A stretch of DNA of 64,000 bases, taken from an uncultured Dehalococcoidales bacterium. Its GTDB lineage: Bacteria > Chloroflexota > Dehalococcoidia > Dehalococcoidales > GCA-2688105. The notes under the pieces were generated by a model, which did no database searches, had not been told where the DNA came from, and saw nothing but the letters and a program-made list of their open reading frames with translations. This document shows, piece after piece, positions 9,670-30,433 of the stretch. Position 1 is the first letter of the stretch. Each line of letters starts with the position of its first letter. The translations under genes were made by a program, and so were the position numbers. The stretch is taken from positions 19,677 through 83,676 of the forward strand of contig CAZCLE010000002.1 of assembly GCA_964499445.1 (NCBI GenBank), read 5' to 3'.

Positions 9670-10006
9670 GTCCCTCCAACGAGGAATAAAGACTCTTCAT
9701 GCCTAGTCAGGTTACGAGTGCAGCTAGAGCCCTATTATACCGGTTGCTTTCCCCCGGTTGCATAGAGCCCTCTCGGTTTCAGGTATTTTACATAACTTTT
9801 TAGGAGGAAGCAAAGTTTTCCTCTTTATCGGCTGCCGAGCCATCGGCACGCAAGCGATGGAAAATGCCCGAGACAGCTTGGGGGAAACATATATTTTGCG
9901 GAGCAGAGGCTGAAGTCTTAGCATGCTCATCGGTGATATGGCGGGTGCCAGGACACTGTTAGGGGTAGACTTTTTATCGCTACGTTTTGGTCTCTCACCT
10001 CTTCCT

Positions 10007-10981
10007 TCACACCAGCCCCTGCTTTTTGAAGTAGAAGATAAATCCCTCGACAATCATCCCCATCTCCAACCCCTCCCCACTGGCACCAAGCTGGCGGGAA
10101 ATGTATTCCTGGATTCGGTGAGTAATAGCCTCAGTAGTCTCCCCGCTCCTCAGGGCTTTCAGGATTATATCACCAAAAATCCTGGTGTTTTCGGCGGCAG
10201 TGGAGATGAGCTCCTCCGGCTGGTTACCTACTCCGTCGTGCGAATAGAAAAGAACCCGGGGATGGAGTTCCCTTAATCTTTCCATAGTCTCCAGGTAGAC
10301 CTCTATATCAAAGCTTGGTGGGGCGGCAACCGGTACTGGTGATGATTCTGCCCCCGGCATTGGCACCCCGAGGGCTTCTCCACAAAAAAGACCCCTTGTC
10401 TTCCTATCGAAGATAGCCATGTGATGGCTGGCATGGCCTGGGGCATAGATTATCTGGAGTTCCCTACCATCAACGGAAATTGTCTCCCCATCTTCAGGAA
10501 TCTTTAACTGGGATTCGGGGACGGGGAGAATGGAGCCGTAGTAGACCTCAAAATCATCGCCAAAGGACATTCTGGAACTCTCAATCAAGCGGGAGGGATT
10601 GACCACGTGCTTTGCTCCCCGGGGATGAATCACTACTTTAGCCTGAGGAAAAAGTTGAGCCAGGCTGCCTATCGCCCCGGCGTGGTCTAGGTGAATATGG
10701 GTGGGGATAATATAAGCCGGCTCTTTCATCCCCAATTGTTTCATCGCCTCCTGAATTGAAGGAAGAATGGCTGTGGGACCGGGCTCTATCACTACCCCTC
10801 TTGTCTCATGGATGAGATACGCTGCAAAGATAGTATTAACCTTGGGTATCCATACTTCTACTCGGTATGTCCCTTCGGCTACTTCCTCCATTTTTATCAT
10901 TACCTCCTCTGCTTTGGTGGTATGGAAGCTTGATAAATTTTTGGCTTCAACTGGAGTTGCGTAATGGGCGTAGCTAAACAA
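10007..10981 (-). CDS. MBL-fold metallo-hydrolase
   Basis: 324 aa. Contains the HxHxDH motif (PTHIHLDHAG) and downstream HASHH and D/H ligands. Confidence 0.8.
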   Translation of the reverse strand: MFSYAHYATPVEAKNLSSFHTTKAEEVMIKMEEVAEGTYRVEVWIPKVNTIFAAYLIHETRGVVIEPGPTAILPSIQEAMKQLGMKEPAYIIPTHIHLDHAGAIGSLAQLFPQAKVVIHPRGAKHVVNPSRLIESSRMSFGDDFEVYYGSILPVPESQLKIPEDGETISVDGRELQIIYAPGHASHHMAIFDRKTRGLFCGEALGVPMPGAESSPVPVAAPPSFDIEVYLETMERLRELHPRVLFYSHDGVGNQPEELISTAAENTRIFGDIILKALRSGETTEAITHRIQEYISRQLGASGEGLEMGMIVEGFIFYFKKQGLV

Positions 10982-11239: not shown

Positions 11240-12472
11240 TTGAAGATAAAATTGATTACCCTGGCCAGTCTAGCATTAGTTTGTTTCCTTGGCGGAGGTT
11301 GTGCTCATTCCCTGGATTTCGATAATCGCCTGAGCTCAATCGTCGAACCATATAGCTTTAGTATTGTGGAATGGGAGTCAAGGGCTATATCACGGGAAGC
11401 AAATCAATGGCTTTTCGGTAAGGATGAAAAGATTGATGATGAAATCCACGTAGTCATGGAGTATTTCTCCTCTGGTGAGCGGATAAAAACCCTGGAATCC
11501 GAATTAGAAGCCATCAATGCCGGTGAAGGGCAGGGCAACCCGACTTCAATCGAAGCCGAGCTAAATATATTACAAGAGCGAAGGATAGCTTTAAAGGAAA
11601 TGGTGGAGAGGATAATAGAGAAGCAGGTAAAAGAAACGCTGGTTCAAGAGGGCATCTTCCATCCAATAGATGAATACATAAGGTTAAAGGTTAGCTTTCC
11701 GCCAATAAATTTCAAGCTGGAGAAACCACCCCATTTGCTGGTGATTTCACCTAGGGAAAAAATAGAGAGCATGAGAGAAATTACCCTGCAGACGAACATT
11801 AGCCTGGAGGAAATAGAGGGGATTGAATCCGAGGCTGATAAGTTAGGCGTCTCATCACTGGTGGTAGAACTCGGTGGTCTGGGAGCGACATATCCCAGCT
11901 TGGTTACCACTGACGCTGACCTGGAGTTTACTATTGATACGGCGACTGAGGAGTGGCTGCATCAATATCTGGTTTTCAAGCCGTTAGGTTTTCTATACTT
12001 ACTGGATTTAATCGGTGTGTCCAGAAATTATGAAATTGCCACCATAAATGAGACCTTAGCCAGTATGGTCAGCGATGAAATTGGGTCTATCGTATGCCAG
12101 AAATACTACTCTCAGTATGAAAATAACGGTGCTCGCCAGAACCAGGAAGCAGAGGCAGGATTTGACTTCAACCGGGAAATGAGGGAGATAAGACGGGCGG
12201 TTGACAATTACCTAGCCCAGGGAGAAATTGAGCAGGCTGAAGAATTTATGGAACAGAAACGGCAATATTTAGCTTCAAGGGGCTATTATATTAGGAAACT
12301 AAATCAAGCCTATTTTGCCTTTCACGGGACATATGCTGATGACCCAACCTCTATTAGCCCCATCGGGCTTGAGTTAAAGGAATTAAGAAGTCGGAGTGCC
12401 TCACTCAAGGATTTTCTAAATACGGTCGCCGCTATGACCAGCCGCCAGGACCTGATAGACAGCATCAAATAA
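11240..12472 (+). CDS. Hypothetical lipoprotein
   Basis: 410 aa with a TTG start. Signal peptide with lipobox: MKIKLITLASLALVCFLGGGC. I recognise no other domain. Confidence 0.55.
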   Translation: MKIKLITLASLALVCFLGGGCAHSLDFDNRLSSIVEPYSFSIVEWESRAISREANQWLFGKDEKIDDEIHVVMEYFSSGERIKTLESELEAINAGEGQGNPTSIEAELNILQERRIALKEMVERIIEKQVKETLVQEGIFHPIDEYIRLKVSFPPINFKLEKPPHLLVISPREKIESMREITLQTNISLEEIEGIESEADKLGVSSLVVELGGLGATYPSLVTTDADLEFTIDTATEEWLHQYLVFKPLGFLYLLDLIGVSRNYEIATINETLASMVSDEIGSIVCQKYYSQYENNGARQNQEAEAGFDFNREMREIRRAVDNYLAQGEIEQAEEFMEQKRQYLASRGYYIRKLNQAYFAFHGTYADDPTSISPIGLELKELRSRSASLKDFLNTVAAMTSRQDLIDSIK

Positions 12473-12486
12473 TCATAGCCATGTTC

Positions 12487-12891
12487 TTATTTTCCCACGA
12501 CTTCAATGATGCCGGCGGTGGCATCGACCTTTACATAATCCCCGGTTTTTATCAGCTCAAATACATTCTTCTCCGGTCTATCCACAGTAGGAATCTTGGT
12601 AATGATAACCGCGCCCGATAAGATGGGCTCACTCTCCAGGCATATCATAGCCGCGGGTGCGTTATTGTTTTGTTTTGCCGCCCAGGCGGCAGAATCACCG
12701 GCACTGGACCCCTTGCCGGTAGTGAACACAAACACCTTACCGACCAGGCTTGTACCCTCTAATTGGTGCCGCGGCATAGGAACCTTACCGGTAGCCGGGT
12801 CTAAATCACCGAGGAAGGAGAACGGCCCGTTATAGACCACCGCTTCCCCTTCTGCCTTACCAGCGCTTATCATGTGAGCTTTTATTTCCAT
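12487..12891 (-). CDS. Aconitase X swivel-domain subunit (DUF126), copy 1
   Basis: I prefer the ATG at 12891 (MEIKAHMISAGKAEGEAVVYNGPFSFLGDLDP...). That start overlaps the large-subunit stop in ATGGAAATAA. TGKGSS and EPILSGA motifs are shared with the second copy at 51728. Confidence 0.75.
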   Translation of the reverse strand: MEIKAHMISAGKAEGEAVVYNGPFSFLGDLDPATGKVPMPRHQLEGTSLVGKVFVFTTGKGSSAGDSAAWAAKQNNNAPAAMICLESEPILSGAVIITKIPTVDRPEKNVFELIKTGDYVKVDATAGIIEVVGK

Positions 12892-14141
12892 TTTGGTATC
12901 TCTCCTTTCCATTTACCGGTGATGGCAGCATTGACGCATTCTTCGTCGGTACCAAAAAAGACTTTGACCTTGCTTACCGTGGCTAGGTAGTGAGCACTTC
13001 GGGCTGAGTTGGTAGCGGCGCTCTTCGCCTGCTTATCGCCGGCGATATCACTGCGGGTGAAGGGATTGTTTATAGATGGGCAGACACATTGGAAATACCC
13101 ACCGGCTTTTTCGATAATGTCGGCCCAACCTTGCCGTCTGGCTAGAGCTTCAACCGGCGCTGAAGCTCCTATTATCATTGTGGTCTTGATTTTTTTGCCC
13201 TCTAATAACTCGGCAACTCGACCTATCTCATCAATGGTGGCATGAGGGCAACCGAAAGCCACGTGCTCCACTATATCATTATCCCAGACGTTTAACCTTT
13301 CCCAGGTTTTGGTCATCTCCTGTTTCCCCACCTTTATCACCTGCTCAGGCCTCTTTTTCCCCAGAGCTGCCTCTAAGGTGGGAGCCTCCGGGGTAGTCCC
13401 TACTATATGAGCCAGGGTTACTGCTCCTGATGTCGGCATTGAGACCACCAGTGCCCGGGCAAAATCGAAAGGAAGGTTAGACGGCAGCCCAGTTATCGCC
13501 ACGGGTTTGAACCCGGGTATCTGGTCGCCAATGTAGTAGCCCAGGCAGTGATAATGAGGAATACCCCAATCGCTTATATCCAGACCATCCAGCTCCGCCA
13601 GGTGACTAGCATATCTATTCTCGGGCAATAGTATGCCCATCAGCGGTGTCCGTCCGCAGACCGCCGCCGCCAGGGAAATCAAAATACCCATCCTGTCTAC
13701 CCTTGCCCCGAACAGGCTGTTATTGGTAACCTGCATACAACTGCCACCCATGGAGACGATATCACCCTTGCGTGGCATGATGCCAATGAGATACTCGGCA
13801 CAGGTCTCGGTGCGCAGCCAGCCCAACTCCAAGTATTTCTTAAGCTTCTTCTCATGTGGGCCTAGCCAGTTGTCAGCCAGGGGTAGTCCCCATTTTTTCC
13901 ATTCTTCGGGGTCGAAGGAAGGATGAGTGGTAACCCGGTGTGGTGTTTTTTTAACCCCCTCAGTCAAAAGGTCCCAGTAATCCACAGGAGAAAAATCGTA
14001 GCTAGTGTGAGCATAAGCGGTTTGAACCAGCTTTTCGGCATCGGCTGATTCGCCTAACTTTATTAATAGGTCTATAGACCTCTGTGTCCCGGGGCCATAT
14101 TCCCCGGCCAGCATCCTTGTCTCTTCATCAGTGAGTAGCAT
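12882..14141 (-). CDS. Aconitase X catalytic subunit (DUF521), copy 1
   Basis: 419 aa. Motifs: LTDEETRMLAGEYG, FGCPH, ATNSARSAHY, AITGKW. It is paralogous to 50453-51727. Confidence 0.8.
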   Translation of the reverse strand: MLLTDEETRMLAGEYGPGTQRSIDLLIKLGESADAEKLVQTAYAHTSYDFSPVDYWDLLTEGVKKTPHRVTTHPSFDPEEWKKWGLPLADNWLGPHEKKLKKYLELGWLRTETCAEYLIGIMPRKGDIVSMGGSCMQVTNNSLFGARVDRMGILISLAAAVCGRTPLMGILLPENRYASHLAELDGLDISDWGIPHYHCLGYYIGDQIPGFKPVAITGLPSNLPFDFARALVVSMPTSGAVTLAHIVGTTPEAPTLEAALGKKRPEQVIKVGKQEMTKTWERLNVWDNDIVEHVAFGCPHATIDEIGRVAELLEGKKIKTTMIIGASAPVEALARRQGWADIIEKAGGYFQCVCPSINNPFTRSDIAGDKQAKSAATNSARSAHYLATVSKVKVFFGTDEECVNAAITGKWKGEIPKWK

Positions 14142-14426
14142 GGTAACTCTCCTTTCCTCGCATTATGTTCGTTCGCATGATTAGCCACGCATTATACCAC
14201 CCGCTCGTTATTAAGTTTTTGTTTCCTCTCAACCTTTTCCAGTATTGCCTATTCCAGCCGCTGCTCTGGGGTCTTCTTCTGGATGACGGCAGTCACGAAA
14301 ACAACTGTAGCGCCTGGCTAGAGAAATGTCAACGGGTGCAGGGGTCAAAAGGGGGGAACTTTTAAGAATGGAGTTCCTACCACCTTATCATTTACCATAA
14401 AATTCGGTATAGAGTCAACAAACTCC

Positions 14427-14466
14427 TGACAAGCTCTTGACAAACTTTTGACAAATCCCCTATAAT
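14427..14466 (+). promoter_or_regulatory. Consensus promoter preceded and overlapped by three phased TGACAA repeats
   Basis: TTGACA (14437-14442), 18-nt spacer, TATAAT (14461-14466). TGACAA occurs at 14427, 14438 and 14449, which is exactly 11-bp phasing. Confidence 0.55.
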
Positions 14467-14529: not shown

Positions 14530-15519
14530 GTGATGGCGGTATTGAACCGTCAAAAACCGGACCGTATGCCCTGCTTTACTGCCAACTCGACTATAACCTA
14601 CGACCAAATGGAAAAGGTGGGCGCCTTCTGGCCGGAAGGGCATGAAAAGGCAGAAGCCATGGCTAAACAGGCTATGGCTGCCTATACCGTACTAGGCTTT
14701 GATGTGGTAAGGGCCCCCTTCTGTCAGACCATGGAGGCTGAGGCTCTTGGTTGTCCCATAAAGTCCGGCGGCGAGAAAGGTATCCCCGGTATGGCACATC
14801 CAGAGGCATATTCACTAGATGATACCCCGGTGATTCCCGACGACTTTCTGTCACGGGGGAGAATACCGGAACTACTCAAGGCAATTACAATAATGAAGAA
14901 GGAACTGGGGGATGAGGTACTCATTGAGGGTGGAATTATCGGACCCTTCTCCATTGCCGCTTCTATGTTAGGGGTGACAAAAACACTGAAAGCTACCGTT
15001 AAGGCACCGGATAAGCTTCTCCCCTTCCTGGATGTAGCCGAAAGGGCAGGAACCATGTTAGCCCATGCCCTTATTGATGCCGGCGCCGACATCATCTCCA
15101 ATGAGGATATGAGTGCTTCTCCCGCTATTATAATGCCTAATAGTTACCATGACTTGGTATATGAATTCCAAGTCAAGCAGTTTGCGGAGATAAAGGTTCC
15201 CAAGATACTTCATATCTGTGGTGACGTGGGGCAGACCATAGAGTGGGAGGCGAAGAGCGGCCCCGAAATTTTGAGTATAGAACCTGCCACTGACCTAAAG
15301 AAAGCCAGAGAAAAAGTTGGAGAGAAGCCCATCTTTATGGGCGGGGTAGACACGGCTAATGTATTGTTTATGAAAGATGTAGAAACAGTAAAAGCGGAAT
15401 GCAGAAAGTCTATAGAGGCGGGTATTCAGATATTGGCTCCGGGCTGCGCCGTAGCCCCGGGTACACCCATAGAAAACCTTATGGCTATGGTGGAAGTAGC
15501 CAAAAGTTATACAAGTTAA
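14530..15519 (+). CDS. MtaA/CmuA-type corrinoid methyltransferase (URO-D family), paralog 1
   Basis: 329 aa. Motifs: DRMPCF, Zn ligands LHICGD and APGCAV. The conserved N-terminal KERV motif lies upstream of the called GTG, so the real start may be a non-canonical ATA at 14512 (see findings). Confidence 0.8.
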   Translation: MMAVLNRQKPDRMPCFTANSTITYDQMEKVGAFWPEGHEKAEAMAKQAMAAYTVLGFDVVRAPFCQTMEAEALGCPIKSGGEKGIPGMAHPEAYSLDDTPVIPDDFLSRGRIPELLKAITIMKKELGDEVLIEGGIIGPFSIAASMLGVTKTLKATVKAPDKLLPFLDVAERAGTMLAHALIDAGADIISNEDMSASPAIIMPNSYHDLVYEFQVKQFAEIKVPKILHICGDVGQTIEWEAKSGPEILSIEPATDLKKAREKVGEKPIFMGGVDTANVLFMKDVETVKAECRKSIEAGIQILAPGCAVAPGTPIENLMAMVEVAKSYTS

Positions 15520-15891
15520 TCAAAACCTTCACCGGTTTTGCCGAGATTAATTTATTGATAATCTATAATAACATTGCCAGAAGGAGGTAAGGCAGGGAAA
15601 AGAAGAGTATAAAGCGTGGGTCAAAAATACATGACTAAACCGGTAAGTTGACCTGTATATTAAGAATAGCAATGGCTATAATGTCTATATAGAACCCAGG
15701 TAAACGTGCTCTAATATATAATAAGAAACAAGAAGAATTTTGGACATAGTCTACAGGTAGTAAAAAGATTTTTGAGCAGAAAGGTATCATGTAGGCGAAA
15801 ACCTTAAGCGGATTTTTGGGTTATTAAGTACTTTAATATTTAGTACTTAGTTTACATAAATCCGCTCGTTGTTTATTATGGGCCAGAATAA

Positions 15892-16071
15892 TGGCTTGAC
15901 AAAAATTTAAGATGTGGTAAAGTAATATACAATTCGCCATCTGACAAAGAATTGAAATGTGGTAGAGTAATATAAAATTAGCCACTTGACAAAAAACTGA
16001 GGTATGGTAAAATAGCGCACAATTTGCCGCTTAACAAAAAACTGAGGTGTGACAGGTTAACATAAGTTTAT
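15892..16071 (+). repeat. Four tandem 45-bp direct repeats, each a -35 / extended -10 promoter-like module
   Basis: The hexamers TTGACA 15896, CTGACA 15941, TTGACA 15986 and TTAACA 16031 have a period of exactly 45 bp. Each is followed after 16 nt by TAAAGT, TAGAGT, TAAAAT or CAGGTT, and these are preceded by TGg (TGa in unit 4). Confidence 0.8.
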
Positions 16072-16169
16072 TCTCTAAAGCCATAATTAAACACGAAAGG
16101 AGGTGATACCCAAGAAGATAAATTTAAAGATAAATAGGAGCAAGCTATTTATTAAAAAGGAGGAAAAAA

Positions 16170-17552
16170 ATGGCTAGAAAACCAACTACTGCAATGGCAT
16201 ATAAGAGCGGCGATGAGATGATTTTCGGAACTACCAAGTTCCCGGTTACCAGCAAGAGGGGAATTAAGTACGGTGGAGGCTATGTCCATCCTACGATAAA
16301 ACCTCATCCCAGACCGGGCACCGAAAAGACCAAGAAGACCCTGATGCGGGAGTATGAAAAGATGAACTTCGATGCCCTGGAAAGAATGGTCATCGTGGGA
16401 CATCCTACTCTTGTGGTCGAGAATGAGCACGTCTTCCAGATGACTCATACCCCCGACTGGGGTGCCGATATCGCCGCCCTGACAGCTAGGATGATGGACG
16501 ATTTGCAGGCTAAATATGGGCTGAAGTCCGCTTATACGGCGACTATAGCCGACCTGCGCAGGCCAGAGAGCGTACACATGCGGACAAGCGATTATACCAA
16601 GGAAATCATTGAATCCTTTAAGGCGTGCTCCAAGTATGCCGACCATGTTTCCATTGAGTCCATGGGTGGTAAGGAAGTATTTGACTATGCCCTCATCCGC
16701 CAGGATATGGCGGGTATTTTATTTGGCATAGGTTATCTGGGCTCTAGAGACATGGAGTGGATGTGGGACCAGATTGTGGCTATTTGTAAGCAGAATAACT
16801 GCATTCCCGGCGGGGACACCAACTGCTCAGAGGCTAACACTGCCATGTTCATGGCAGGGGGTATGACATCCAAGGATGTGCCTCATGTATATGCCGCTCT
16901 AGCCCGTGCTATTTCGGCGGCAAGGACTATGGTAGCCTATGAGTGTGGTGCTACTGGACCTACCAAGGACTGTGCCTATGAGGATCCCATTGTCAAAGCC
17001 ATGACTGGAGTTCCTATCACCACCGAGGGCAAAACTAGTGCTTGCGGGCACTCCGACTTGGCCAGCAACCTGATTGCTGCCGTATGTGACCTTTGGAGCA
17101 ACGAGGCCGTGGAATATCACGATATGTTCGGTGCTACCACTACCTCGGTCTTCGCCGAGATACTCGGTTATGATTGCGCTCAGTTCAACTGCGCCATCGA
17201 CTTGGGTTTGGCGAAAGAGATGCAAACTATCCTGGTCAACTCTGACGCATATCGGGATTCCCACAGCCTGATTCTGGTGCCCGATAATGCCTGGGCGATA
17301 GGTAACGCCATCGTCAGCAACACGGCTAAGGGATACTACACCAGAGCCAGAGCCGGAGCCATGAAGGCAGGTAGTATCATCCTGGCTGATGCCAAGATGA
17401 AATTGACCGCCTTTGAAAAAGATGCCCTAGAGGATGCAATGAAGCAGATGGAGGCTCTGCCCGAGGATGAAGGAACCTTTGTCGATATGTGTATGAAGAA
17501 ATACACGAAGTTAGTGCCAGGCTTTAATCCTGATTCCTATGGATTGAAATAG
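16170..17552 (+). CDS. mtaB: Methanol:corrinoid methyltransferase
   Basis: 460 aa and collinear with my recollection of Methanosarcina MtaB. Motifs: AYKSGDEMIFG, SIESMGGKEVFDYA, GGDTNCSEANTAMF, GPTKDCAYED, EGKTSACGHSD, WSNEAVEYH, NPDSYGL. The Glu/Cys/Cys zinc-ligand contexts are conserved. Strong SD. Confidence 0.9.
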   Translation: MARKPTTAMAYKSGDEMIFGTTKFPVTSKRGIKYGGGYVHPTIKPHPRPGTEKTKKTLMREYEKMNFDALERMVIVGHPTLVVENEHVFQMTHTPDWGADIAALTARMMDDLQAKYGLKSAYTATIADLRRPESVHMRTSDYTKEIIESFKACSKYADHVSIESMGGKEVFDYALIRQDMAGILFGIGYLGSRDMEWMWDQIVAICKQNNCIPGGDTNCSEANTAMFMAGGMTSKDVPHVYAALARAISAARTMVAYECGATGPTKDCAYEDPIVKAMTGVPITTEGKTSACGHSDLASNLIAAVCDLWSNEAVEYHDMFGATTTSVFAEILGYDCAQFNCAIDLGLAKEMQTILVNSDAYRDSHSLILVPDNAWAIGNAIVSNTAKGYYTRARAGAMKAGSIILADAKMKLTAFEKDALEDAMKQMEALPEDEGTFVDMCMKKYTKLVPGFNPDSYGLK

Positions 17553-17690
17553 AAGTAGAGGACATTAGAAACATTGGTTCTGGGCCCACCCGGTAAAACT
17601 TTTGGTTATGTGAAAGTAGTCAAAAAGAAGCAGAATTAGGGGTGGCTTTCCTAGAATCACTTAGAATCAATTGATAAAAAGGAGGGAAGC

Positions 17691-18440
17691 ATGAAATTCT
17701 TGGCTGATTATTCTAATATTTTCAGACGCTACGACCTTGAGACTGAGGTGAAAAAGGAAGCGGCACGTAAAATCTCCAGTGACGCTGCTTTACAAGGGGT
17801 TGGCACTTTAGTTGTTGAAGGCGAAGCGGAAGACATTGAGCCAGCAGTCAAAAAGGCATTAGAGTCCAAAGACCCCATGACTGTTATTACTGATGGACTT
17901 ATCGCTGGCATGAATGAAGTGAGCCGTCTGTGGGATGAGGGCGTTTATTTTCTGCCCCAGGTTATTCTGGCCGCGGATGCCATGAACGCCGGCATCGTCC
18001 TATGCGAGAAGAAGATGGGCAAGCCCATGGCGAGGAAGGGTAAAGTGGTTACCCACACTGCTGAGGGTGATATTCACGACATCGGTCAGATTATCGCCAA
18101 CGCCCTTTTCAATGCTGGTGGTTTTGAAGTTATCAATCTGGGGTGTGATTGTCCGGTAGATACGGTTGTAGCCACAGTTAAGAAGGAGAAACCGCTTCTG
18201 GTTACCGGAACAGCCCTGATGACCACCACTATGACTGCTTTTCCGAAGATTTGCCACCAGCTTCAGGAAGCGGGGATAAACACCCCCTTTATCAGTGCTG
18301 GGGGAGCAGTCGCCGAAGAATGGTCAACCTCTTTTCCGCTGAGTATTTGGGGCAAAGAGGATTCCCAGTCAGTGCCACTGGCTGAAGATGCCCTAGGCGG
18401 TATGAGTTGGGAGGATATGCGGTCAAAGTGGAACGGATAA
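17691..18440 (+). CDS. mtaC: Methanol-type corrinoid protein (B12-binding, His-on)
   Basis: 249 aa. A helical cap domain precedes a Rossmann domain carrying the DxHxxG motif (EGDIHDIGQ). It lies immediately downstream of mtaB. Confidence 0.85.
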   Translation: MKFLADYSNIFRRYDLETEVKKEAARKISSDAALQGVGTLVVEGEAEDIEPAVKKALESKDPMTVITDGLIAGMNEVSRLWDEGVYFLPQVILAADAMNAGIVLCEKKMGKPMARKGKVVTHTAEGDIHDIGQIIANALFNAGGFEVINLGCDCPVDTVVATVKKEKPLLVTGTALMTTTMTAFPKICHQLQEAGINTPFISAGGAVAEEWSTSFPLSIWGKEDSQSVPLAEDALGGMSWEDMRSKWNG

Positions 18441-18461
18441 CGAGATAAAGAAAGGCAGAGG

Positions 18462-19442
18462 ATGATTGCAGATATTATCTTTGGTTTCTTAGGTTCCGGC
18501 AAAACCACTGTTATCGCCAATATCCTTAAGGAATGGGGGCGGGATGAAAAAATTGTAGTGTTGGTAAATGAGTTCGGCGAGGTGGGCATAGATGGGGACC
18601 TGTTAGCCAGTCAGCACGGTGATGTAGTAGAAATGCCCGCCGGCTGTATCTGCTGCACCCTTCAAGTGGACTTTAGACGCCAAATGCTGGAGATAAGTGA
18701 AACCATCAATCCGCAGAGGGTACTAATTGAGCCCACTGGTGTAGCTCAAATAACCCAAATAATGTACATCATACACGCCGAATTATTCAAGGATAGAATC
18801 GAAGAAATCCATAATATCCTGATTACCGATGCTACCAATTTCATCAATTTTTATCGGCTCAACCGAAATTTCGTTGAGTCGCAGGTAAAAAATGCACATG
18901 TGGTCTTGCTGAACAAATGCGATAGAGTCAAAAAAATACAAGCCGAGGTTACCAAAAACGCTATATCTGCAATCAATCCTCAAGTTCCTGTTCTTTTGAC
19001 TGAGTTTGGGGCAGTGGAGTGGGGCGAATACAAATCAGCCCTCTCCGCTGTCCCTTGTTTGTCAGCGGATTTTGAAGCGGAACCGTCTTCCCCGACAGGG
19101 GAAGTTGAAGAAGAGGGACTTATCCATCTCCACGAGGAGGAAGATACATTAGGCTATGAATCTTTTGGTTGTACTTATGAACTTTCTTTTGATAGGCAGG
19201 AACTGGAAAAGCTGTTTCAAGAGTTGTTAAATTCTACCCTTTTGGGCGAGGAAATAGTTAGAGCCAAAGGAATATTCAGGGTAGATAACAAATGGGTAGT
19301 GGGACAACTCGCCTCAGGAGAAGTTTCCTGGCAAGAAGTTAAAGGTGTCAAACAGAGTAAAATCTCAATAGTCGGGAGAAACCTAAAAAGGGAACTGATT
19401 GGGACCGCGGTCAACCGATGTTTAGCCGGGATTAGCGGTTAG
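18462..19442 (+). CDS. CobW/COG0523-family G3E GTPase (metallochaperone-like)
   Basis: 326 aa. P-loop GFLGSGKTT, the CxCC motif in AGCICCTL, NKCD, and a C-terminal CobW_C-like domain. It starts 21 nt after mtaC. Confidence 0.85.
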   Translation: MIADIIFGFLGSGKTTVIANILKEWGRDEKIVVLVNEFGEVGIDGDLLASQHGDVVEMPAGCICCTLQVDFRRQMLEISETINPQRVLIEPTGVAQITQIMYIIHAELFKDRIEEIHNILITDATNFINFYRLNRNFVESQVKNAHVVLLNKCDRVKKIQAEVTKNAISAINPQVPVLLTEFGAVEWGEYKSALSAVPCLSADFEAEPSSPTGEVEEEGLIHLHEEEDTLGYESFGCTYELSFDRQELEKLFQELLNSTLLGEEIVRAKGIFRVDNKWVVGQLASGEVSWQEVKGVKQSKISIVGRNLKRELIGTAVNRCLAGISG

Positions 19443-19658
19443 AAGGTCATTTCCTAATCTGTTACCACTCTGTGTTGCCGACGGGATAGGAGCGGCAAGC
19501 TTGCTCGGAGGAATCTTTAGAGGATTCAAAGCAAAGTTCGAGCAAGGACAGGGTTGTTTATTATAAGTACTCAGTTGGATTGAGGTTCGTCACTGGTTTG
19601 GAATTGAAAGTCAAGTGACATAAAATTTTCAATCCAACAAGAAAAGGAGGGAAGGAAA

Positions 19659-20168
19659 ATGGCAATACCAGTACTTATGGCAATTAGCCTTATGTGGATA
19701 CCTGTAGGATTGCTTAACCTGGGTAAAGGAGAAGCCAAGGGGACAGGTGCCCTTACCCTTATGGTGGGCACAGTCGTGATCATAGGCGCAATCATTCAGG
19801 CAACCATTTTCAAGGATCCGTGGATTGGCGCCCTGCTCTTCACATACGGCCTCTTTTACAGTATCGTCGGTTACGCCCTATTTACCGAACAGAAAGACAT
19901 TAAGTTCGTAGGCAACGCCAGTATTACGGTAGGACTAATATCCATTGGCTACATAATTCTCTGTTTAGCCGGCCCCGCTGCTTTAAGAAGCAACTTCCTG
20001 GCGCTGGCTTGCGCTGGATACCTGGTCCTCTATATCATGGTCTGGGGCAACGCATACGGCTGGCTCTCGGGCAAGATCACAGGTGTGTCACTCATCGTGT
20101 GGACGTTTGTGGGTCTCTTTGTCCCTGCCTTCTGGCTGGTGGCTACGGGTCAGTTGCCGTGGGCATAA
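19659..20168 (+). CDS. Small six-helix membrane protein, AmiS/UreI-like channel family (tentative)
   Basis: 169 aa. Helix pattern and segments (LLNLGKGEAKGTGALTLMVG, GALLFTYGLFY, GKITGVSLIVWTFVGLFVPAFWLVATGQ) resemble my recollection of the AmiS and UreI sequences. Strong SD. Confidence 0.5.
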   Translation: MAIPVLMAISLMWIPVGLLNLGKGEAKGTGALTLMVGTVVIIGAIIQATIFKDPWIGALLFTYGLFYSIVGYALFTEQKDIKFVGNASITVGLISIGYIILCLAGPAALRSNFLALACAGYLVLYIMVWGNAYGWLSGKITGVSLIVWTFVGLFVPAFWLVATGQLPWA

Positions 20169-20209
20169 GCGGCGGATTTGTTCTTATTTAGAGCAACAAG
20201 TGTAACAAG

Positions 20210-20280
20210 AGGAGGTTCACCGAATCACCTTATTGTTCGGGGAAGCAGTGAAATACGAGCATTCGGTGCGCCTCCTTTTG
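20210..20280 (+). terminator. Long terminator-like hairpin after the AmiS/UreI-like gene
   Basis: AGGAGGTTCACCGAAT (20210-20225) pairs with ATTCGGTGCGCCTCCT (20261-20276), followed by TTTG. The 35-nt loop contains an alternative TTCGG partner. Confidence 0.35.
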
Positions 20281-20570
20281 TATGTGCGTATGGTTACCCG
20301 ATTCATTTACCTTGGACTGAGAGGGTAATTACCAAATCATCATCCTAAGGTTCCCAAGGTAATAGTGGGCAAAGCGAAGCTAGCGATTGTTAGTAAACAG
20401 TATTGTGTCGGTCAGAGATTGCTATAATTCAGTATGAAGGTTTAGGATTTCCATCCCACCTTCTTATAGTGCTCTGTGAATGTTGGTTTGCTTGAGGTGA
20501 AAATTCGCCATATATGATAAAATCCTGTTAACGCTTAACTAATTCTTAGTCTTGAAGGAGAAATAATAAG

Positions 20571-21206
20571 ATGGCTGGAGAACAAAAATATGAAGAGTTC
20601 CGTCCCCTTGAAGAGGAAGATTTGCTTAATTATCTTCCAGATGTGAGCTACAGTGAATGTGGGGCGGACAGCGATGTGGAATATGCCGAACTGGTAATTG
20701 AAGGCAAAGCCATGCCTTCTAAATGTCCCATACTGGACGAAAAAATTGCGGCCGCGATGGAAAAAGTGTTTAAGCTTGAACTCCCTTCAATACCCGATAC
20801 CGCACCAGGGACACCGGTCAACTGTGGTATCATAAAAGTTGGAAATCCAACCGCTGATTCTATGGTACTGATAAACGGAAATTGTCAGGAAACTATTTCC
20901 GTCATAAAGTTTATCCTTGAAGAAACTCAAACCGATGCCTTTTTATTAGCCATAGATACCCAGGGCTACAGCATAGAGAATGCGCTGGCGGCAGGAATCT
21001 TTCAGCCTTCCGAAGTTTTTAAATCACTCGGCGAATCAGGGCTAGCCAATGAAATTAGCCATCGGAAGGTCATTCTTCCCGGATTGTGCGAGCCTTTGGC
21101 TGCGGATATTAAAAGGTTAGCCTCGTGGGATTGGGAGGTCACATTAGGTCCGGTTAGCGCCCTTGAATTGCCACTCTATCTCATAAAAATGGCTCAAGAG
21201 GCTTAA
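20571..21206 (+). CDS. Truncated CFeSP large-subunit (AcsC/CdhE)-like corrinoid-binding protein with a degenerate N-terminal Fe-S motif
   Basis: 211 aa. The N-terminus LPDVSYSECGADSDVEYAELVIEGKAMPSKCP parallels the LPxxNCGxCGxxTCxxFA...CP Fe-S domain but keeps only 2 of 4 Cys. The C-terminus FLLAIDTQGYSIENALAAGIF...SHRKVILPGL...WEVTLGPVSALELPLYL parallels the AcsC/HgcA corrinoid domain. No TIM-barrel middle domain is present. Confidence 0.6.
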   Translation: MAGEQKYEEFRPLEEEDLLNYLPDVSYSECGADSDVEYAELVIEGKAMPSKCPILDEKIAAAMEKVFKLELPSIPDTAPGTPVNCGIIKVGNPTADSMVLINGNCQETISVIKFILEETQTDAFLLAIDTQGYSIENALAAGIFQPSEVFKSLGESGLANEISHRKVILPGLCEPLAADIKRLASWDWEVTLGPVSALELPLYLIKMAQEA

Positions 21207-21337
21207 ATCTGTCACTTAACAATTAAGCAGAAATCAAGAATTAGTCCGACTCTTATAAAGGTCTAGATGAGTGGGTGCTTATTCGCCGAAATGGCTAAAC
21301 GAGCAATGATATGCCCGTAGTCGAATAAACTTCGTGG

Positions 21338-21928
21338 TTACAATTTGACCCCGATGAGAATAGTCCCCAAGCCTCGCTGATCAAGCCCTTCAAAATAGCC
21401 TTTCTTCAAAAATATATCACAAGGCGTGGTAGGCGTACCGTAAGTAATAGAATGATATGAAAAATCGCTTTCTTCCAGGACACGCCATTCTGCCGAGCCG
21501 CACGGAATCTCAAAATGGCACAACTTTTTCATGATATCCTGGGGGAAAGATATCTTGTCCTTGTAAATAACAAAATTTTTGTGCATAAACCAGACATTTT
21601 CCTTTTGGGACAGACTGGCGATGGTTTCTTCATCATGAACCTCTTCGCCCACCACCTCATCGCCCTTTCTTAAAATCAGGGAACAAGAGCCCCACTCAAA
21701 CTCCATGTCAGTTAGGGCTACATAGATTAAATCATAAGTTAAGACTTCTCTTACCCCGACGTTGACGACCTTACCCATACCCATCAAGGAGTGCTTTTCG
21801 GCATCCTCCTCGATGCCAAGGACCTCCTGCCTGTCTTTTTCGAGAAGAGGGCTGACGTCCACAATCCCCTTCACCTTTTTCAAGGCGGCTATCATCAGGG
21901 TATTTGCCCTCATCCGGTCTATGGTCAT
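21338..21928 (-). CDS. Hypothetical protein, no recognised domain, coupled to the RamA-like activase
   Basis: I prefer the ATG at 21928 (MTIDRMRANTL...), which is preceded by GGAGGAGAA. That start lies 26 nt downstream of the activase stop. Cys pattern CHFEIPCG...PCD. Confidence 0.55.
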   Translation of the reverse strand: MTIDRMRANTLMIAALKKVKGIVDVSPLLEKDRQEVLGIEEDAEKHSLMGMGKVVNVGVREVLTYDLIYVALTDMEFEWGSCSLILRKGDEVVGEEVHDEETIASLSQKENVWFMHKNFVIYKDKISFPQDIMKKLCHFEIPCGSAEWRVLEESDFSYHSITYGTPTTPCDIFLKKGYFEGLDQRGLGTILIGVKL

Positions 21929-21954
21929 TTCTCCTCCGACGCTGAACATCTACT

Positions 21955-23619
21955 TTATCGGACTTTAACTCCAGAGGTAAGCAGTTTAGTCAGGTCGAAC
22001 ACCTTTTCACTACAGGCCTGTTCACATCTACTACAGCCCATACCATCACATAGAGCCAGGTCAATGGTGATGCTAAAACCCTCCTCTTGCTCATCCTGGG
22101 AGAGGGCGTTCTCGGGGCATCTCTCGATGCACTCCTCGCAGCCGATACAGCCCTCGAAAATGATTCTTTTCAGTTCTCCGATGTCGGGAATAATCTTCAG
22201 TCCTTTAACCCCTAAATCGGGTATGTCTCTCTCCACAGTCTTAATAACCTGGGGAAGCTCACTGACCTCCTCCAGAGGGGGGAGCCCGTATCTTTTAAGA
22301 AATTGTTGATAGGTTTTCCAGGGCATACCCTCAGTCCAGAAAGACATTTCAAGCATGTAGACCTGCTTAAAAACTTCGGACTCGGCAAACATGCAGTGGT
22401 TTTGGCGCAGCTCAGTGGCCATCTTTTGCATGTTCCACAGTTCATCCACGTTTTTGACCATATCTCTGGACATAGCTAGAGAGGTATTTCCCACCTGGAA
22501 AACTCTCTTAACACTTGATGGTATCATGCCTATTTGCTGGGACTTCAGGGCATCAACATAGGTTCCGGAGGCGCCAGACATATAAGCCGTTTCTATTTTA
22601 CTCACATCTATGCCGGCTGCCTGGCAAAGGGCTACATGCCCGGCCCTGACCGCACCAATAGCCTTACCCGCCTCCGTAACATCGTGTTCGGTAAACTTGA
22701 TGCCGTTGGCAAGTTTAATTTCACCGTCTCCGGTACTGATTTTGGGAAGTTTAATCAGACCGGCCTTTAGTCCCTGGCTGAGTAAGGCAACCACTCCAGT
22801 GCCGGTAATGCCCACCGCCTCTAAGTCTCCTTTCTCCAGGACTTTTCCCGAACTGGGGACCACCTTATCCCCTTTTTGGACAAACATATCCTGGTCGAGG
22901 ATATAACACTGAAGTCCGCCTCCAGGAGAGCTTGTGTCGGGGAAATAATACTCGACATCAGAGATGGCGCCGGGGAGAGCTAAAAGCCCGTCTTCAATCT
23001 GTTGCCCTTCCAGGGCAGGCCCGGCAGCCGTGGAGCCGGTATAGACGACTCCCTCTACTATGAGGGACATTTCGTTGTTAGTACCGTAGTCGGTGACAAT
23101 GGAGATTTCCTCTCTTTCCAGCGCACCTGCCTGAATCATCATGGCTAGGGCGTCGGCTCCGATCTCGTGGCGGACCGCCGGTGGCACCAATATGTCTACG
23201 CCGGCTGGCAGGTCAAGACCTCTGATATCCCGGGACTTAAATATTTTGGCGTCTCTATTTGGAGGAACCACCCCCAGAGCTTCCAATTTTCGTTTCCCGG
23301 CATAGGCCAGGTCTCTTATCTCAATTTCCCTGAAAAGAGAAAGCTGGATAGGGTTGCCGCAGACAGCGGCTCGTATCACGTCGTTTTTTTCGATTCTAAG
23401 GTTGTCAATAACCCGGTTGACGGCATGAATAACTACATCGTGGGAGATTTCCAGTCCGACCTCCAGGGCAAAATGTAGGTGGTCGATTACATTGGCTCCT
23501 GGTAGGGGGTGTCGGGTGGTAATGGCAGTAGAGATTATTTTATTCCCGTTCTCCAGATCAATGGCTTGCCCTCTGAAGCCGCTGGTTCCTAAATCAAGGG
23601 CTATACCTAGTTTTCCCAT
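21955..23619 (-). CDS. RamA-type corrinoid reductive activase (ASKHA/DUF4445 with C-terminal 2x[4Fe-4S] ferredoxin domain)
   Basis: 554 aa. ASKHA phosphate-1 motif GIALDLGTSGFRG. The C-terminal CIGCEECIERCP and CDGMGCSRCEQAC motifs match the domain order described for Methanosarcina RamA (COG3894). Confidence 0.8.
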   Translation of the reverse strand: MGKLGIALDLGTSGFRGQAIDLENGNKIISTAITTRHPLPGANVIDHLHFALEVGLEISHDVVIHAVNRVIDNLRIEKNDVIRAAVCGNPIQLSLFREIEIRDLAYAGKRKLEALGVVPPNRDAKIFKSRDIRGLDLPAGVDILVPPAVRHEIGADALAMMIQAGALEREEISIVTDYGTNNEMSLIVEGVVYTGSTAAGPALEGQQIEDGLLALPGAISDVEYYFPDTSSPGGGLQCYILDQDMFVQKGDKVVPSSGKVLEKGDLEAVGITGTGVVALLSQGLKAGLIKLPKISTGDGEIKLANGIKFTEHDVTEAGKAIGAVRAGHVALCQAAGIDVSKIETAYMSGASGTYVDALKSQQIGMIPSSVKRVFQVGNTSLAMSRDMVKNVDELWNMQKMATELRQNHCMFAESEVFKQVYMLEMSFWTEGMPWKTYQQFLKRYGLPPLEEVSELPQVIKTVERDIPDLGVKGLKIIPDIGELKRIIFEGCIGCEECIERCPENALSQDEQEEGFSITIDLALCDGMGCSRCEQACSEKVFDLTKLLTSGVKVR

Positions 23620-24005
23620 AACTCCTCCTGGTAAAAAATCAGTCTTTTACTTTCGCACTTTCCTGCTGCCAATTTGTCAGGGTTAATCGTTCAAAGCCTC
23701 TTCCAGCGCTGCTTATCAGGCTGGTGCTTGAACTATCATGGCGACAACTCTCGCCTGAGAGCAAGTGAAATTCTCGACCCTAATATACTAGACGGTAGCT
23801 TGGATGTCAATAAGTTGGAGTGATATCCGGCGGGGGAAACAAAGAGGTTTTGGAAGCGGGTATTTGGGAAGGTATTGCCGGAGCCCAGAATCTGCTGAAG
23901 CTGGGGATATTGAGATGCTACCACAGAGAGTAGTGGTATAAACTTTTTTCAGGTGGGTTGGAGAAATAATCAACTTTTTAACATAACCAAAGCAATGCAG
24001 AGCTA

Positions 24006-24035
24006 TTGACAATGAAGCTAGAAACAGCTTATAAT
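24006..24035 (+). promoter_or_regulatory. Consensus sigma70-type promoter of the second corrinoid operon
   Basis: TTGACA (24006-24011), 18-nt spacer, TATAAT (24030-24035), 35 nt upstream of the ATG at 24071. Confidence 0.55.
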
Positions 24036-24070
24036 CTCATTATCACTATAAATAAAAGGGAGGAAAAAGA

Positions 24071-24754
24071 ATGGCTTCAGAGGAGAGAGCTAAGGAATTA
24101 TTTAAAGGACTTCAGGAGGCGGTGATAATCTGGGATGAGGACAAAGTAGTGGAGCTTTGCCACGCTGTCATAGATGAAGGCGTAGACCCCTATGACGCCA
24201 CCATGGATGGTCTGGCGGCTGGAATGCAGGCGGTAGGCGACCTGTATGAAAAGAAGGAATACTTTGTCCCAGAACTTCTGATGTGCGCCGATGCGCTGTA
24301 TGCCGGGTTGGACCTCCTAAAGCCGGCTATCGTTGCCTCAGGAAGAAAGTCAAAGGTAAAAGGGTCAGTAGTCATCGGTGTTGTTGAGGGCGATGTTCAC
24401 GACATCGGCAAGAACTTAATCAAGATGATGTTTGATGTTGCCGGCTGGAATGTCTTTGACCTGGGAAAGGACGTAGAACTGAGTAGGTTTGTGGAGGAGC
24501 AAATAAAGACCGATTCTGAAATTGTGGCTATGTCAGCTATGATGACGACCTCCATGATGGGCATGCCCAAGGTCATTGAGATGATAAAGGCGAAAAATCC
24601 CAAGTGTCGCATCATGATAGGTGGCGCTCCGATAACCACCGATGTGGCGAAAAAATATGATGCTGACGGATACGCTGAGAGTGCCGCAACCGCAGTTGAG
24701 GAAGCGATGAAACTGATTGAAATGTTAAGGAAAGAAGAGGCAGCGGCAAAGTAA
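24071..24754 (+). CDS. Cobalamin-binding corrinoid protein (MtxC / O-demethylase CP type)
   Basis: 227 aa. A B12-binding-2 cap helix bundle precedes a Rossmann domain with DxHxxG (EGDVHDIGKN) and MSAMMTTSM. Confidence 0.85.
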   Translation: MASEERAKELFKGLQEAVIIWDEDKVVELCHAVIDEGVDPYDATMDGLAAGMQAVGDLYEKKEYFVPELLMCADALYAGLDLLKPAIVASGRKSKVKGSVVIGVVEGDVHDIGKNLIKMMFDVAGWNVFDLGKDVELSRFVEEQIKTDSEIVAMSAMMTTSMMGMPKVIEMIKAKNPKCRIMIGGAPITTDVAKKYDADGYAESAATAVEEAMKLIEMLRKEEAAAK

Positions 24755-24894
24755 AAAAATAAAATCACAAAAGGCAAAATACAAAGATGATATGGTACTA
24801 AGACAGATATAAAATGAATCAGGGGATTGGATGAGTGCGATGCGTAGTAGTCATCCGCTAGATCGAATCCCCTTTATTTGGAAAGGGAGGAAAT

Positions 24895-26853: not shown

Positions 26854-26871
26854 GCTCCGGGAGGTATATTA

Positions 26872-27807
26872 TTGATGCTTAAATATGACTTGAAACAAAA
26901 GGTCTGTAACATTGGTGGTGTGAAAGTAGGCGGTCAGCCGGGAGAGAATCCCCCTCTTCTAATCGGCAATATGTTCCAGAAGGGGGACATACTCATTGAG
27001 AGCCGGAAGGAGCGCAAGTTCAACAAGGAGGGAGCTAAGGAGCGCATCCACGAGATGGAGCGCCTCTCCCAGGAGACAGGTGTGCCCGGCTTGGTAGGCA
27101 TGGTCGCTAACGCTCTAGATGAAGTAAAGACTTATGTGGACTTTTTTACCAGCGTGACCAAGATGCCTTTTGCCATTGATATCTGGGTGCAGAAGACGAG
27201 ACTAGCCGCAGCCCGCTATGTGGCTGAGCTAGGGCTCCAGGACCGATTACTTTACAACAGCATCACCCCCTGGGACGAGGACATCGAAGCCCAGGTGGCG
27301 GAACTCAAGGAACTGGGTATCAAGCATGTTGTAATTCAGGCGTTTGATGTAGAGGATATGGGGCCCCGAGGCAGGGTCTCGTCACTCAAGAAGTTGCTAC
27401 CTATGGTGGAGAAGGGGAATTTTGAGAGCATCTTGGTGGACACAGCGGTAATGGGCTTACCGCTGACCGCCTTCTCGTTGATAGGCAATCGTCTGGTCAA
27501 GGAGGAGTTTGGACTACCGGTGGGCTGTGCTCCCTCCAACGGCACCTACATGTGGAAGAAAGCTGTGGGAGCGGAGGGCGCAAGCAAGTTCCCGCCTGTG
27601 GATGCTGCTATAGAGGCAATAACCGCTATGGGAAGCGACTTTATTTTCTATGGTCCCATGACCGGCACCGGCAGGGTCTTCGCTGCGGTGGCTGCCGCTA
27701 TCAGCCTGCTTGCCACCTGGGCTTATGACGAGGGAGCACCCTTACCCACTGAGGGTCACCCTTTGAATCTACTCTTCCCTGAGGTAGTAGAGCAATTATC
27801 AAAATAA
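26872..27807 (+). CDS. mtrH: MtrH-family methyl-corrinoid:pterin methyltransferase
   Basis: 311 aa. N-terminal GGVKVGGQPGENPPLLIGNMF matches the MtrH signature FGGQPGE. The rest is collinear with my recollection of MtrH. The start could instead be the ATG at 26875. Confidence 0.8.
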   Translation: MMLKYDLKQKVCNIGGVKVGGQPGENPPLLIGNMFQKGDILIESRKERKFNKEGAKERIHEMERLSQETGVPGLVGMVANALDEVKTYVDFFTSVTKMPFAIDIWVQKTRLAAARYVAELGLQDRLLYNSITPWDEDIEAQVAELKELGIKHVVIQAFDVEDMGPRGRVSSLKKLLPMVEKGNFESILVDTAVMGLPLTAFSLIGNRLVKEEFGLPVGCAPSNGTYMWKKAVGAEGASKFPPVDAAIEAITAMGSDFIFYGPMTGTGRVFAAVAAAISLLATWAYDEGAPLPTEGHPLNLLFPEVVEQLSK

Positions 27808-27827
27808 GAAGGGGGAAAGAAATAATT

Positions 27828-28916: not shown

Positions 28917-28932
28917 AGATAGCTAACGCCTG

Positions 28933-29085
28933 GGGTGTTAATGCTGTCACATGGCCGGAGTGTGATATCGGGTTAACTATGCCCAAGTAAAGCATGGAAG
29001 TGCTAATGGCAGCGATGAGGAAATGCGTTAAGCTCGGGTAATCGCTGCTAAAATTTGCCAGCATTGCTTTAGTCATATTGCCCTA
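28933..29085 (+). pseudogene. 3'-terminal remnant of a URO-D methyltransferase paralog plus its downstream non-coding tail
   Basis: About 150 nt align by eye at roughly 85% to 30067-30215, the last 35 codons of paralog 3 plus 45 nt after its stop. Conceptual translation GVNAV.WPECDIGLTMPK*SMEVLMAAMRKCVKLG* carries an indel and an internal stop. Confidence 0.6.
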
Positions 29086-29134
29086 AGATATGCTAAACCG
29101 CATATTTGAGATATAGTATGCAGAAAGGAATAGT

Positions 29135-30172: not shown

Positions 30173-30433
30173 TCGCTGCTAAAATTTGCCAGCACTGTTT
30201 TAGCCATACTGGCTTCAGACATACTGAACGGCGTGTCGGAGGTATAGGGGTGGCAGAAATGATGGGCGTTAAGAGGGTTCAATAAAGGAGCCCTCCAAGG
30301 CTGGTGTGTGCTGACGTCGGGGCATCGATTTTTAGCTTCCGGTAACGCTTAAAGCCTTTTTTATCGGGTAATCCCAATGTTGACTAATGTGTGGTAAGCT
30401 TATTTAGAATTTCTATGAAGAGGAAGTAGGGAA

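Follow-up and report, generated by a model that had tools for sequence, protein, structure and literature searches.

The 64,000-nucleotide stretch of DNA analysed here (hereafter the window) comes from an uncultured Dehalococcoidales bacterium (GenBank assembly GCA_964499445.1, contig CAZCLE010000002.1, positions 19,677 to 83,676), and in it the methanol methyltransferase gene mtaB is preceded by four 45-bp units which follow one another head to tail without spacers. We consider that this array is probably a tandem cluster of extended -10 promoters of the sigma-70/sigma-A type, which drives mtaBC(-cobW) and arose through amplification of a core promoter. This reading is built on the repeat itself, on the homology of its units to the single promoter found in relatives, on a copy-number series, on the pattern of conservation within the units and on the reproducibility of the array across assemblies. 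From these features one would expect each unit to fire in vivo, and the output to rise with copy number.

Architecture and conservation of the array

The four units occupy positions 15895-16074 and are itemized in Table 1. Tandem Repeats Finder reported 15895-16051 with a period of 45, 3.5 copies, 75% matches, no indels and a score of 160, which is about three times that of the next best tandem array in the window, and a repeat search returned three 45-nt copies in register (identity 100/80/69%, spacing 45/45). Both the program and a direct reading of the sequence bear out the original prediction, which had described four contiguous units with -35-like hexamers at 15896, 15941, 15986 and 16031. 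In all four the hexamer is followed by a 16-nt spacer ending in TGTG, TGTG, TATG and TGTG, respectively, plus one base, and units 1-3 share the pattern (T/C)TGACA-16 nt-TRTGgTAnAnT. The accompanying description of units 1-3 as a -35, 16 nt and an extended -10, with unit 4 degenerate, agrees with a promoter consensus scan, which picked up units 1-3 independently, all with the TG extension and with 10, 9 and 11 of 12 matches; unit 3 is the closest to consensus. A degenerate version of the unit pattern has three matches in the window, all of them units 1-3, where shuffled sequences predict 0.03. No further copies of the unit, as a mobile promoter might have left, were found elsewhere in the 64 kb. 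Adjacent units are 64-80% identical (60-80% over all pairs) and have exact words of at most 7-15 nt in common; units 1 and 2 differ from unit 3 at 27-36% of positions. Outside the hexamers, units 1-3 keep ACAAA after the -35 and AATT(n)GCC at their ends. The gap between mtaA and mtaB (15520-16169) measures 650 bp and is AT-rich, as had been stated (G+C content 0.33 against 0.48 for the window), and 95 nt separate the end of the array from the mtaB ATG, close to the 100 nt originally estimated.

A fifth promoter-like match (TTTACA-17-TATTAT, 10 of 12) is found at 15851-15879. Its -35 precedes that of unit 1 by exactly 45 bp and so keeps the register of the array; the surrounding 45 bp, which overlap the hairpin described below in its descending arm, are only about 36% identical to unit 1 by a count made by eye.

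Units 1-3 display a -35 near TTGACA, a 16-nt spacer, a TAnnnT -10 and TRTG, the -16 motif of Gram-positive bacteria, as is characteristic of sigma-70/sigma-A extended -10 promoters; the CAGGTT of unit 4 departs from TAnnnT. When the entire window was scanned for TTGACA/16-18/TAnnnT, TG earning a bonus, 18 strong matches emerged, 16 of which fall in the 11% of the sequence that is intergenic (binomial P 9e-14). These 16 are in the correct orientation and upstream of genes including mtaA, the second corrinoid protein gene, pgk and a tRNA gene, and the TG extension is present in several of the scan matches. The consensus of units 1-3 thus looks like that of other probable promoters of the host genome. 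As for clustering, three intact modules lie on the same strand inside 135 bp before mtaB, and neither an open reading frame (ORF) of at least 60 amino acids nor a terminator-like site was found between 15895 and 16170. The 45-bp spacing of the starts exceeds the 35-bp threshold for independent occupancy (PMC8830795).

Three other readings were considered and rejected. A coding function finds no ORF of at least 60 amino acids, only short non-conserved ones. As RNA, the array and leader fold no better than shuffled sequence (z scores of -0.2 and +0.2); in the whole window a single tRNA was all that matched Rfam at the gathering threshold, and on 15500-16200 the matches with E values up to 10 did not exceed chance level. 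A sigma-54 promoter in the TTTGCA region of the relatives was discarded on account of its unsuitable GG-to-GC spacing (judged by eye).

Selection appears to have kept each of units 1-3 promoter-competent. When 12 intact modules from distinct lineages are compared, near-invariance is confined to the -35 and T.TG.TA...T, TRTG being found in every one, and the spacers and flanks drift. Within the window, units 1-3 vary in 18 of their 45 columns but in only one of the 11 key positions (P 0.016). Units 1-3 of the window and those of L170, the other four-unit locus, differ by 15 substitutions, none of them on the 36 key promoter positions (P 0.007), and in L170 an insertion of 7 nt immediately behind the -10 of unit 2 leaves the promoter elements unchanged. 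Unit 4 we take as a picture of an unselected copy.

If the array is such a cluster, units 1-3 would be three paralogous promoters, each able to start transcription on its own, with predicted starts at about 15929-15931, 15974-15976 and 16019-16021 and mRNAs with nested 5' untranslated regions (5'UTRs) of about 240, 195 and 150 nt. All transcripts would share a conserved leader with a distal Shine-Dalgarno (SD)-like element, a small hairpin and a strong ribosome-binding site. With starts 45 bp apart, more than the approximately 35 bp of an open complex, neighbouring promoters would not occlude each other, and because the spacing is too wide for occlusion the cluster should capture RNA polymerase more often than one promoter. 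Transcription of mtaB, the enzyme presumably being needed in large amounts, would thereby be raised or made more robust, and the interference left over would come from polymerase parked on a downstream unit.

Origin, stability and alternative explanations

For comparison, mtaB loci (numbered with the prefix L) were gathered from collections of genomes and metagenomes and through look-ups of identical proteins, and their upstream regions were compared. One module, of the form TTGCAA or TTGACA-16/17 nt-T(G/A)TG(G/A)TAnAnT, is present in L001/L081, L002/L083, L084, L085, L167/L168, L003 and L032/L166; in the first five of these it is colinear with unit 4 of the window and is followed by the same leader. 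Two units occur in L138, L109 and L172, in which unit A is 87% identical to window unit 1, and unit B, semi-degenerate, is colinear with unit 4. Four units are found in the window and in L170 (ENA ERZ23498525; 98% MtaB identity, 94.9% DNA identity over 7.1 kb), and only a remnant of unit B in L143 and L171. The module is missing from about 125 non-Dehalococcoidia mtaB upstream regions, save for three weak chance matches. Because related mtaB loci present one-, two- and four-unit states, we read the array as the product of stepwise tandem duplication of the mtaB core promoter. An ancestral single promoter, which six related Dehalococcoidia lineages retain as one copy, would have duplicated once to give the two-unit state still present in L138, L109 and L172, further duplication would have led to the four units of the window/L170 lineage, and unit 4, the ancestral promoter-proximal copy, would have decayed afterwards. 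Unit 1 of L170 agrees with window unit 3 at 38/45 positions and with window unit 1 at 34/45, and some of its differences probably arrived together through gene conversion from unit 3.

Four other assemblies (JGI 3300022553, JGI 3300013086, NCBI GCA_007279795.1 and Logan SRR6481100, the last of which we found no mention of in the literature) are 100% identical to the window over 3.7-7.4 kb, the whole array included. All five assemblies of this population have four units, as does L170 with its own substitutions at about 5% DNA divergence; copy number is stable across that divergence. The comparison of repeat number that had been suggested with the original prediction accordingly gave a divided result, with no variation among the five assemblies and L170 and with 1, 2 or 4 units between lineages.

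An assembly artefact, which had been named as one of the findings that would undo the prediction, is excluded because the four further assemblies match exactly and L170 has four units with mutations of its own. Short-read assemblers can in general miscount tandem repeats, and no specific support for a mis-assembled or over-expanded repeat was found; the divergence of the units lets reads of 100-150 nt be placed uniquely and the further assemblies come from three sources, so that we give this explanation a negligible probability. It is also very improbable that the array is a contingency locus, in which slipped-strand mispairing would often change the number of units and create cell-to-cell differences in mtaB expression; the slippage-prone rheostat originally suggested is of this kind. 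Unit number does vary between lineages, and the resemblance of L170 unit 1 to window unit 3 suggests recombination within the array. Known phase-variable repeats, on the other hand, are near-identical, and these units make a poor slippage substrate because neighbours share only 64-80% identity and exact words of 7-15 nt; the constant four units in the five assemblies and in the 5%-diverged relative tell against the rheostat on short time scales. Changes in array copy number would then be a matter of slow evolution and not a switch. Appreciably less improbable, while still doubtful, is the idea that only one unit works in vivo, unit 3 being the likeliest, and that the others are duplication leftovers or a weak reservoir of RNA polymerase. 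The decay of unit 4 and of unit B in L138/L109 makes redundancy after duplication real, relatives express mtaB from a single copy, and interference between tandem promoters limits the gain (PMC8830795). Neutral relics of that age should, however, resemble unit 4, and units 1 and 2 retain every key position except for the T-to-C change in the CTGACA of unit 2, despite their divergence from unit 3, a retention repeated in L170 after its further substitutions and insertion.

Rather unlikely, in our estimation, is a role of the units as sites for a regulator encoded outside the window, with a TTGACAA(A) or AATTnGCC box; the array would then titrate or position the regulator protein, and the likeness to promoters would be partly incidental. 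Such sites would agree with the conservation of ACAAA and AATT(n)GCC outside the hexamers of units 1-3, with the three to four tandem 11-bp repeats bearing a TTGACAA-like box in the mtaA promoter of the same lineages, and with the control of mta operons elsewhere by dedicated activators, for example the AraC-type MtaR of Eubacterium limosum (PMC13602510). The columns conserved over the 12 modules are nevertheless exactly the -35, TRTG and the T-A-T of the -10, unit 3 of L170 no longer has the GCC of its AATTnGCC box, and other, unrelated promoters in the window bear the same consensus. Successive sites would moreover be out of phase (45 bp/10.5 = 4.3 turns) and not on one face of the DNA; this spacing, together with the fact that promoter elements are what is conserved, speaks against the phased array of activator sites originally put forward. 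The earlier statement that the 64 kb hold no recognisable transcription-factor gene stands as far as Pfam tells, for no transcription-factor domain was detected by Pfam in the 60 window ORFs of at least 70 amino acids. Eight of the 60 are without any Pfam match, and a regulator among them is for that reason possible. A DNA-binding protein may still take part, since AATTnGCC is conserved in units 1-3 of the window and the mtaA promoter has its TTGACAA-like 11-bp repeats.

Of the three readings first offered, then, only that of stacked promoters is favoured, on the strength of homology to the relatives' single mtaB core promoter, of a consensus that the genome uses elsewhere and of the key positions kept in three units and two lineages. 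Several considerations weigh against it. Two-unit and four-unit lineages alike have let the proximal unit decay, so that the copies would be at least partly redundant and not simply additive; the gain from stacking may be small, because polymerase at a downstream unit can block those from upstream units; and many relatives manage with a single promoter copy. The conservation statistics do not come from fully independent events, since unit 1 of L170 seems to owe some of its substitutions to gene conversion from unit 3. Lastly, the mtaA promoter of these lineages repeats a TTGACAA motif every 11 bp, and a DNA-binding protein that recognises this motif is possible.

Comparison with known systems and wider meaning

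Multiple promoters before one bacterial gene are common, usually with unrelated sequences, and synthetic repeated promoters are an established tool. What would be unusual, to judge by the sequences, is that selection in a natural bacterial lineage has preserved whole promoters which are paralogous to one another and regularly arrayed. The synthetic counterpart is the MCPtacs series of Li et al. (2012), in which a 41-bp core tac promoter repeated head to tail gave a stepwise rise in expression with up to five copies (4.4-fold; PMC3293061). Both place spacer-free, head-to-tail copies of a complete core promoter (about 41-45 bp) before one operon; the MCPtacs units are engineered, identical and tested in E. 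coli, whereas those of the mtaB array are natural, 64-80% identical, evolutionarily kept with one of four decayed, and of predicted activity. For native E. coli tandem promoters with starts more than 35 bp apart, Chauhan et al. (2022) found no occlusion and an output of one to two times that of a single promoter, interference stemming from occupancy of the downstream promoter (PMC8830795). The mtaB array resembles these and the rrn P1/P2-type in placing two or more same-strand sigma-70 promoters before one gene, and differs in that its promoters are paralogous copies in a regular 45-bp repeat, where the native ones generally have unrelated sequences and are often differently regulated.

The spacer promoters of eukaryotic rDNA are a classical case of tandem duplication, in which the core promoter of a gene with very high expression is copied upstream of the true promoter with lineage-variable copy number (PMC1215480), and to that extent are comparable with the mtaB array. 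They are mechanistically unrelated, being eukaryotic, transcribed by RNA polymerase I, larger in unit size and enhancer-like in role. Another natural duplication of promoter motifs has been proposed to raise expression of cfiA in one Bacteroides fragilis isolate, and was not validated by the authors (PMC13509656). Unlike the mtaB array, it is not an evolutionarily conserved array, and comprises two motifs of the Bacteroides promoter type of recent origin in a single clinical isolate. The ToxR-bound TTTTGAT heptads upstream of ctxAB in Vibrio cholerae are likewise tandem repeats before a highly expressed operon and differ in copy number between strains; they are short factor sites in front of one promoter, whereas each mtaB unit is a whole promoter and its conserved positions are promoter positions. 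The mta operon of E. limosum, also a bacterial methanol methyltransferase operon, has a single promoter with the MtaR activator, an upstream activating region and catabolite repression (PMC13602510); a regulator of that type or cre-like logic is not recognisable at the mtaB array locus. A full-text literature search returned no paper combining Dehalococcoidia, mtaB and methanol.

Relatives still record the one-, two- and four-copy stages, and three copies remain intact while the remainder of each unit has drifted. If the units fire as predicted, nature would have reached the stacked-promoter design that engineers use for raising chromosomal expression, and the locus would offer a comparative system in which output, noise and interference can be related to promoter copy number. 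The array is also an indication that methanol:corrinoid methyl transfer is strongly expressed in uncultured Dehalococcoidia. More speculatively, and with the balance of probability well on the other side, expression of the methanol methyltransferase might depend chiefly on how many copies of cis-elements are present and to a smaller degree on dedicated regulators. It is just as tentative a part of this proposal that tandem duplication was used repeatedly and independently at four levels of the locus. The duplicated elements are the mtaB core promoter (1, 2 or 4 x 45 bp), a 30-nt motif (1-3 copies), the SD-like leader element (1-2 copies; L032/L166/L169) and the -35 region of mtaA (1, 3 or 4 x 11 bp). 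Were the proposal true, amplification of promoter elements would be a general heritable way to hard-wire expression level in these bacteria.

Other elements of the locus and its gene neighbourhood

Table 1. Features of the mtaB locus; coordinates are those of the window unless another locus is named.
Feature	Position	Strand	Remarks
Gene for MtaA-like URO-D family methyltransferase	14530-15519	+	Pfam
30-nt purine-rich motif GAGGTAAGGCAGGGAAAAGAAGAGTATAAAG	15584-15614	+	single copy in window
Terminator-like compound hairpin with U-rich tail	15807-15879	+	fold -28 kcal/mol, z -3.9
Unit 1	15895-15939	+	-35 TTGACA 15896-15901; TGTG 15913-15916; -10 TAAAGT 15918-15923
Unit 2	15940-15984	+	-35 CTGACA 15941-15946; TGTG 15958-15961; -10 TAGAGT 15963-15968
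Unit 3	15985-16029	+	-35 TTGACA 15986-15991; TATG 16003-16006; -10 TAAAAT 16008-16013
Unit 4	16030-16074	+	degenerate, TTAACA (16031-16036) ... TGTGaCAGGTT (CAGGTT 16053-16058); ancestral promoter position
Distal SD-like element GAAAGGAGGTGAT	16095-16107	+	13 nt, 63-75 nt before mtaB ATG, in shared 5'UTR
mtaB ribosome-binding site AAGGAGG	16157-16163	+	start codon 16170-16172
mtaB	16170-17552	+	Pfam PF12176, E 1e-194
mtaC (corrinoid protein)	17691-18440	+	Pfam PF02607/PF02310
Gene for cobW-family GTPase	18462-19442	+	Pfam PF02492
30-nt unit in relatives	L085 ~570-670; L001 1262-1312; L002 2786-2836; L167 ~1165-1225		

Only 17 nt lie from the end of the terminator-like hairpin to the -35 of unit 1. 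The homologue of this hairpin in L143 is stronger (-43 kcal/mol, z -9) and is followed by UUAUUUUUU; one compensatory pair was seen in the comparison. The hairpin probably insulates the array by stopping upstream transcription there, and since it lies directly upstream the mtaB operon would need a promoter of its own and depend on the array. The hairpin forms the end of a leader-like or small-RNA-like element of about 190 nt (15689-15879, with TATAAT at 15677-15682) that is common to the window, L170 and L143 and consists of the conserved blocks TAGAACC, ACGTGYTCT and GGTATCATGTAGGCGAA, a variable middle and the terminal hairpin with its U-rich tail. No Rfam family matched it, and three sequences are too few for covariation. 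In L143 its homologue directly precedes the mtaB leader, with only the remnant promoter unit between, and might serve as an attenuator. A mobile-element origin of the extra 270 bp or so at 15615-15890 was rejected, as neither the window nor the fetched loci contain a second copy; what the stretch proves homologous to is the leader-like element in L143 and L170. The first base of the L164 contig (corresponding to window 15689-19410; from Logan SRR6481100) lies exactly 7 nt downstream of the TATAAT, at the point expected for the start of a transcript from this -10, and the contig ends in a Nextera adapter. If derived from RNA, it may represent a transcript running from that -10 through hairpin and array into mtaB; it may also be coincidence.

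The distal SD-like element GAAAGGAGGTGAT has no start codon at usable spacing after it, and the only ORF, which starts at an overlapping GTG, is not conserved in relatives. An SD-like 5'UTR sequence that does not direct translation initiation, termed STAB-SD, stabilises the cry3A mRNA of Bacillus thuringiensis (PMC4113751); an element of this kind binds the 30S subunit and shields the mRNA from 5'-3' decay. The window contains no 16S rRNA gene from which the anti-SD sequence could be read. The mtaB element is like it in sequence type, in its 5'UTR position and in lacking a translation start, and is a candidate for an mRNA stabiliser of this type or a ribosome standby site. The sequence G(A/G)GGTGA occurs at about -70 to -100 in some 45 of 145 distinct mtaB leaders from several phyla (about 3 being expected by chance, a rough estimate), and the sequence after it is not conserved. 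The SD-like element is tandemly duplicated in L169 (44-nt duplication at about 25-110, AAAGGAGGTGATAGCCAAGAAGCTTAAATTA...), and in L032/L166 as a 14-nt duplication between -90 and -60 before mtaB (AGGTGATAGCCTAG / AGGTGATAGCCAAG). The leader itself (16054-16170) looks like a mosaic, in which the part from unit 4 to AAACACGAAAGG resembles L138/L109 (92% over 37 nt) and the part between GGAGGTGATACCC and the ATG hardly differs from L002, a pattern suggestive of lineages having recombined inside the leader.

A 30-nt purine-rich unit (GAGGTAAGGCTGAGAAAAGAAGAGTATAAA) stands in tandem directly upstream of the single mtaB promoter in several relatives, with three copies in L085 and two in L001, L002, L084 and L167. 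In the window and L170 the unit is single and lies about 280 bp away from the array. Relatives with the tandem unit have a weaker -35 (TTGCAA), and the unit is a candidate upstream activating or UP-like element.

The mtaA promoter (14415-14466) contains four tandem 11-bp repeats with the -35-like hexamers TCAACAAACTC, CTGACAAGCTC, TTGACAAACTT and TTGACAAATCC, then TATAAT; of the four hexamers the third alone stands at a distance from the -10 (18 nt) that could work. Four such repeats are present in L170 and three in L138 and L109; L002, L081 and L167 have a single TTGACA-17-TATAAT. The repeats, each one helical turn long, may be a binding site of the response-regulator type or the result of slippage in the -35 region.

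The order mtaB-mtaC-cobW matches that of relatives (synteny in L161-L172), and the closest MtaB proteins, with 80-91% identity, belong to metagenome-assembled genomes named Dehalococcoidia or Dehalococcoidales. These genes are part of a corrinoid methyl-transfer island (14530-31820 and 31946-34569) which includes three MtaA-like URO-D proteins, two corrinoid proteins, two reductive activators of the RACo type, an MtrH-like methyltransferase, CobW, DUF2284, a corrinoid adenosyltransferase, CobQ and a BtuF-like binding protein, and cobamide and corrinoid methyl-transfer functions are abundant in the window at large. The window also carries two separate AcnX gene pairs (12487-14141 and 50453-52138), and ORFs without a Pfam match lie at 392-628, 9724-10053, 11240-12472, 21338-21949, 23788-24012, 34997-35620 and 63317-63616.

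Among mtaB loci outside the Dehalococcoidia type, L019 (at about 2880-2900) and L165 (at about 440-460) have sigma-54-type sequences resembling TGGCAC-N5-TTGCA, with the end of an NtrC-like activator gene bearing a Fis-type helix-turn-helix just upstream (both judged by eye). It appears that mtaB is driven by quite different types of promoter in different phyla.

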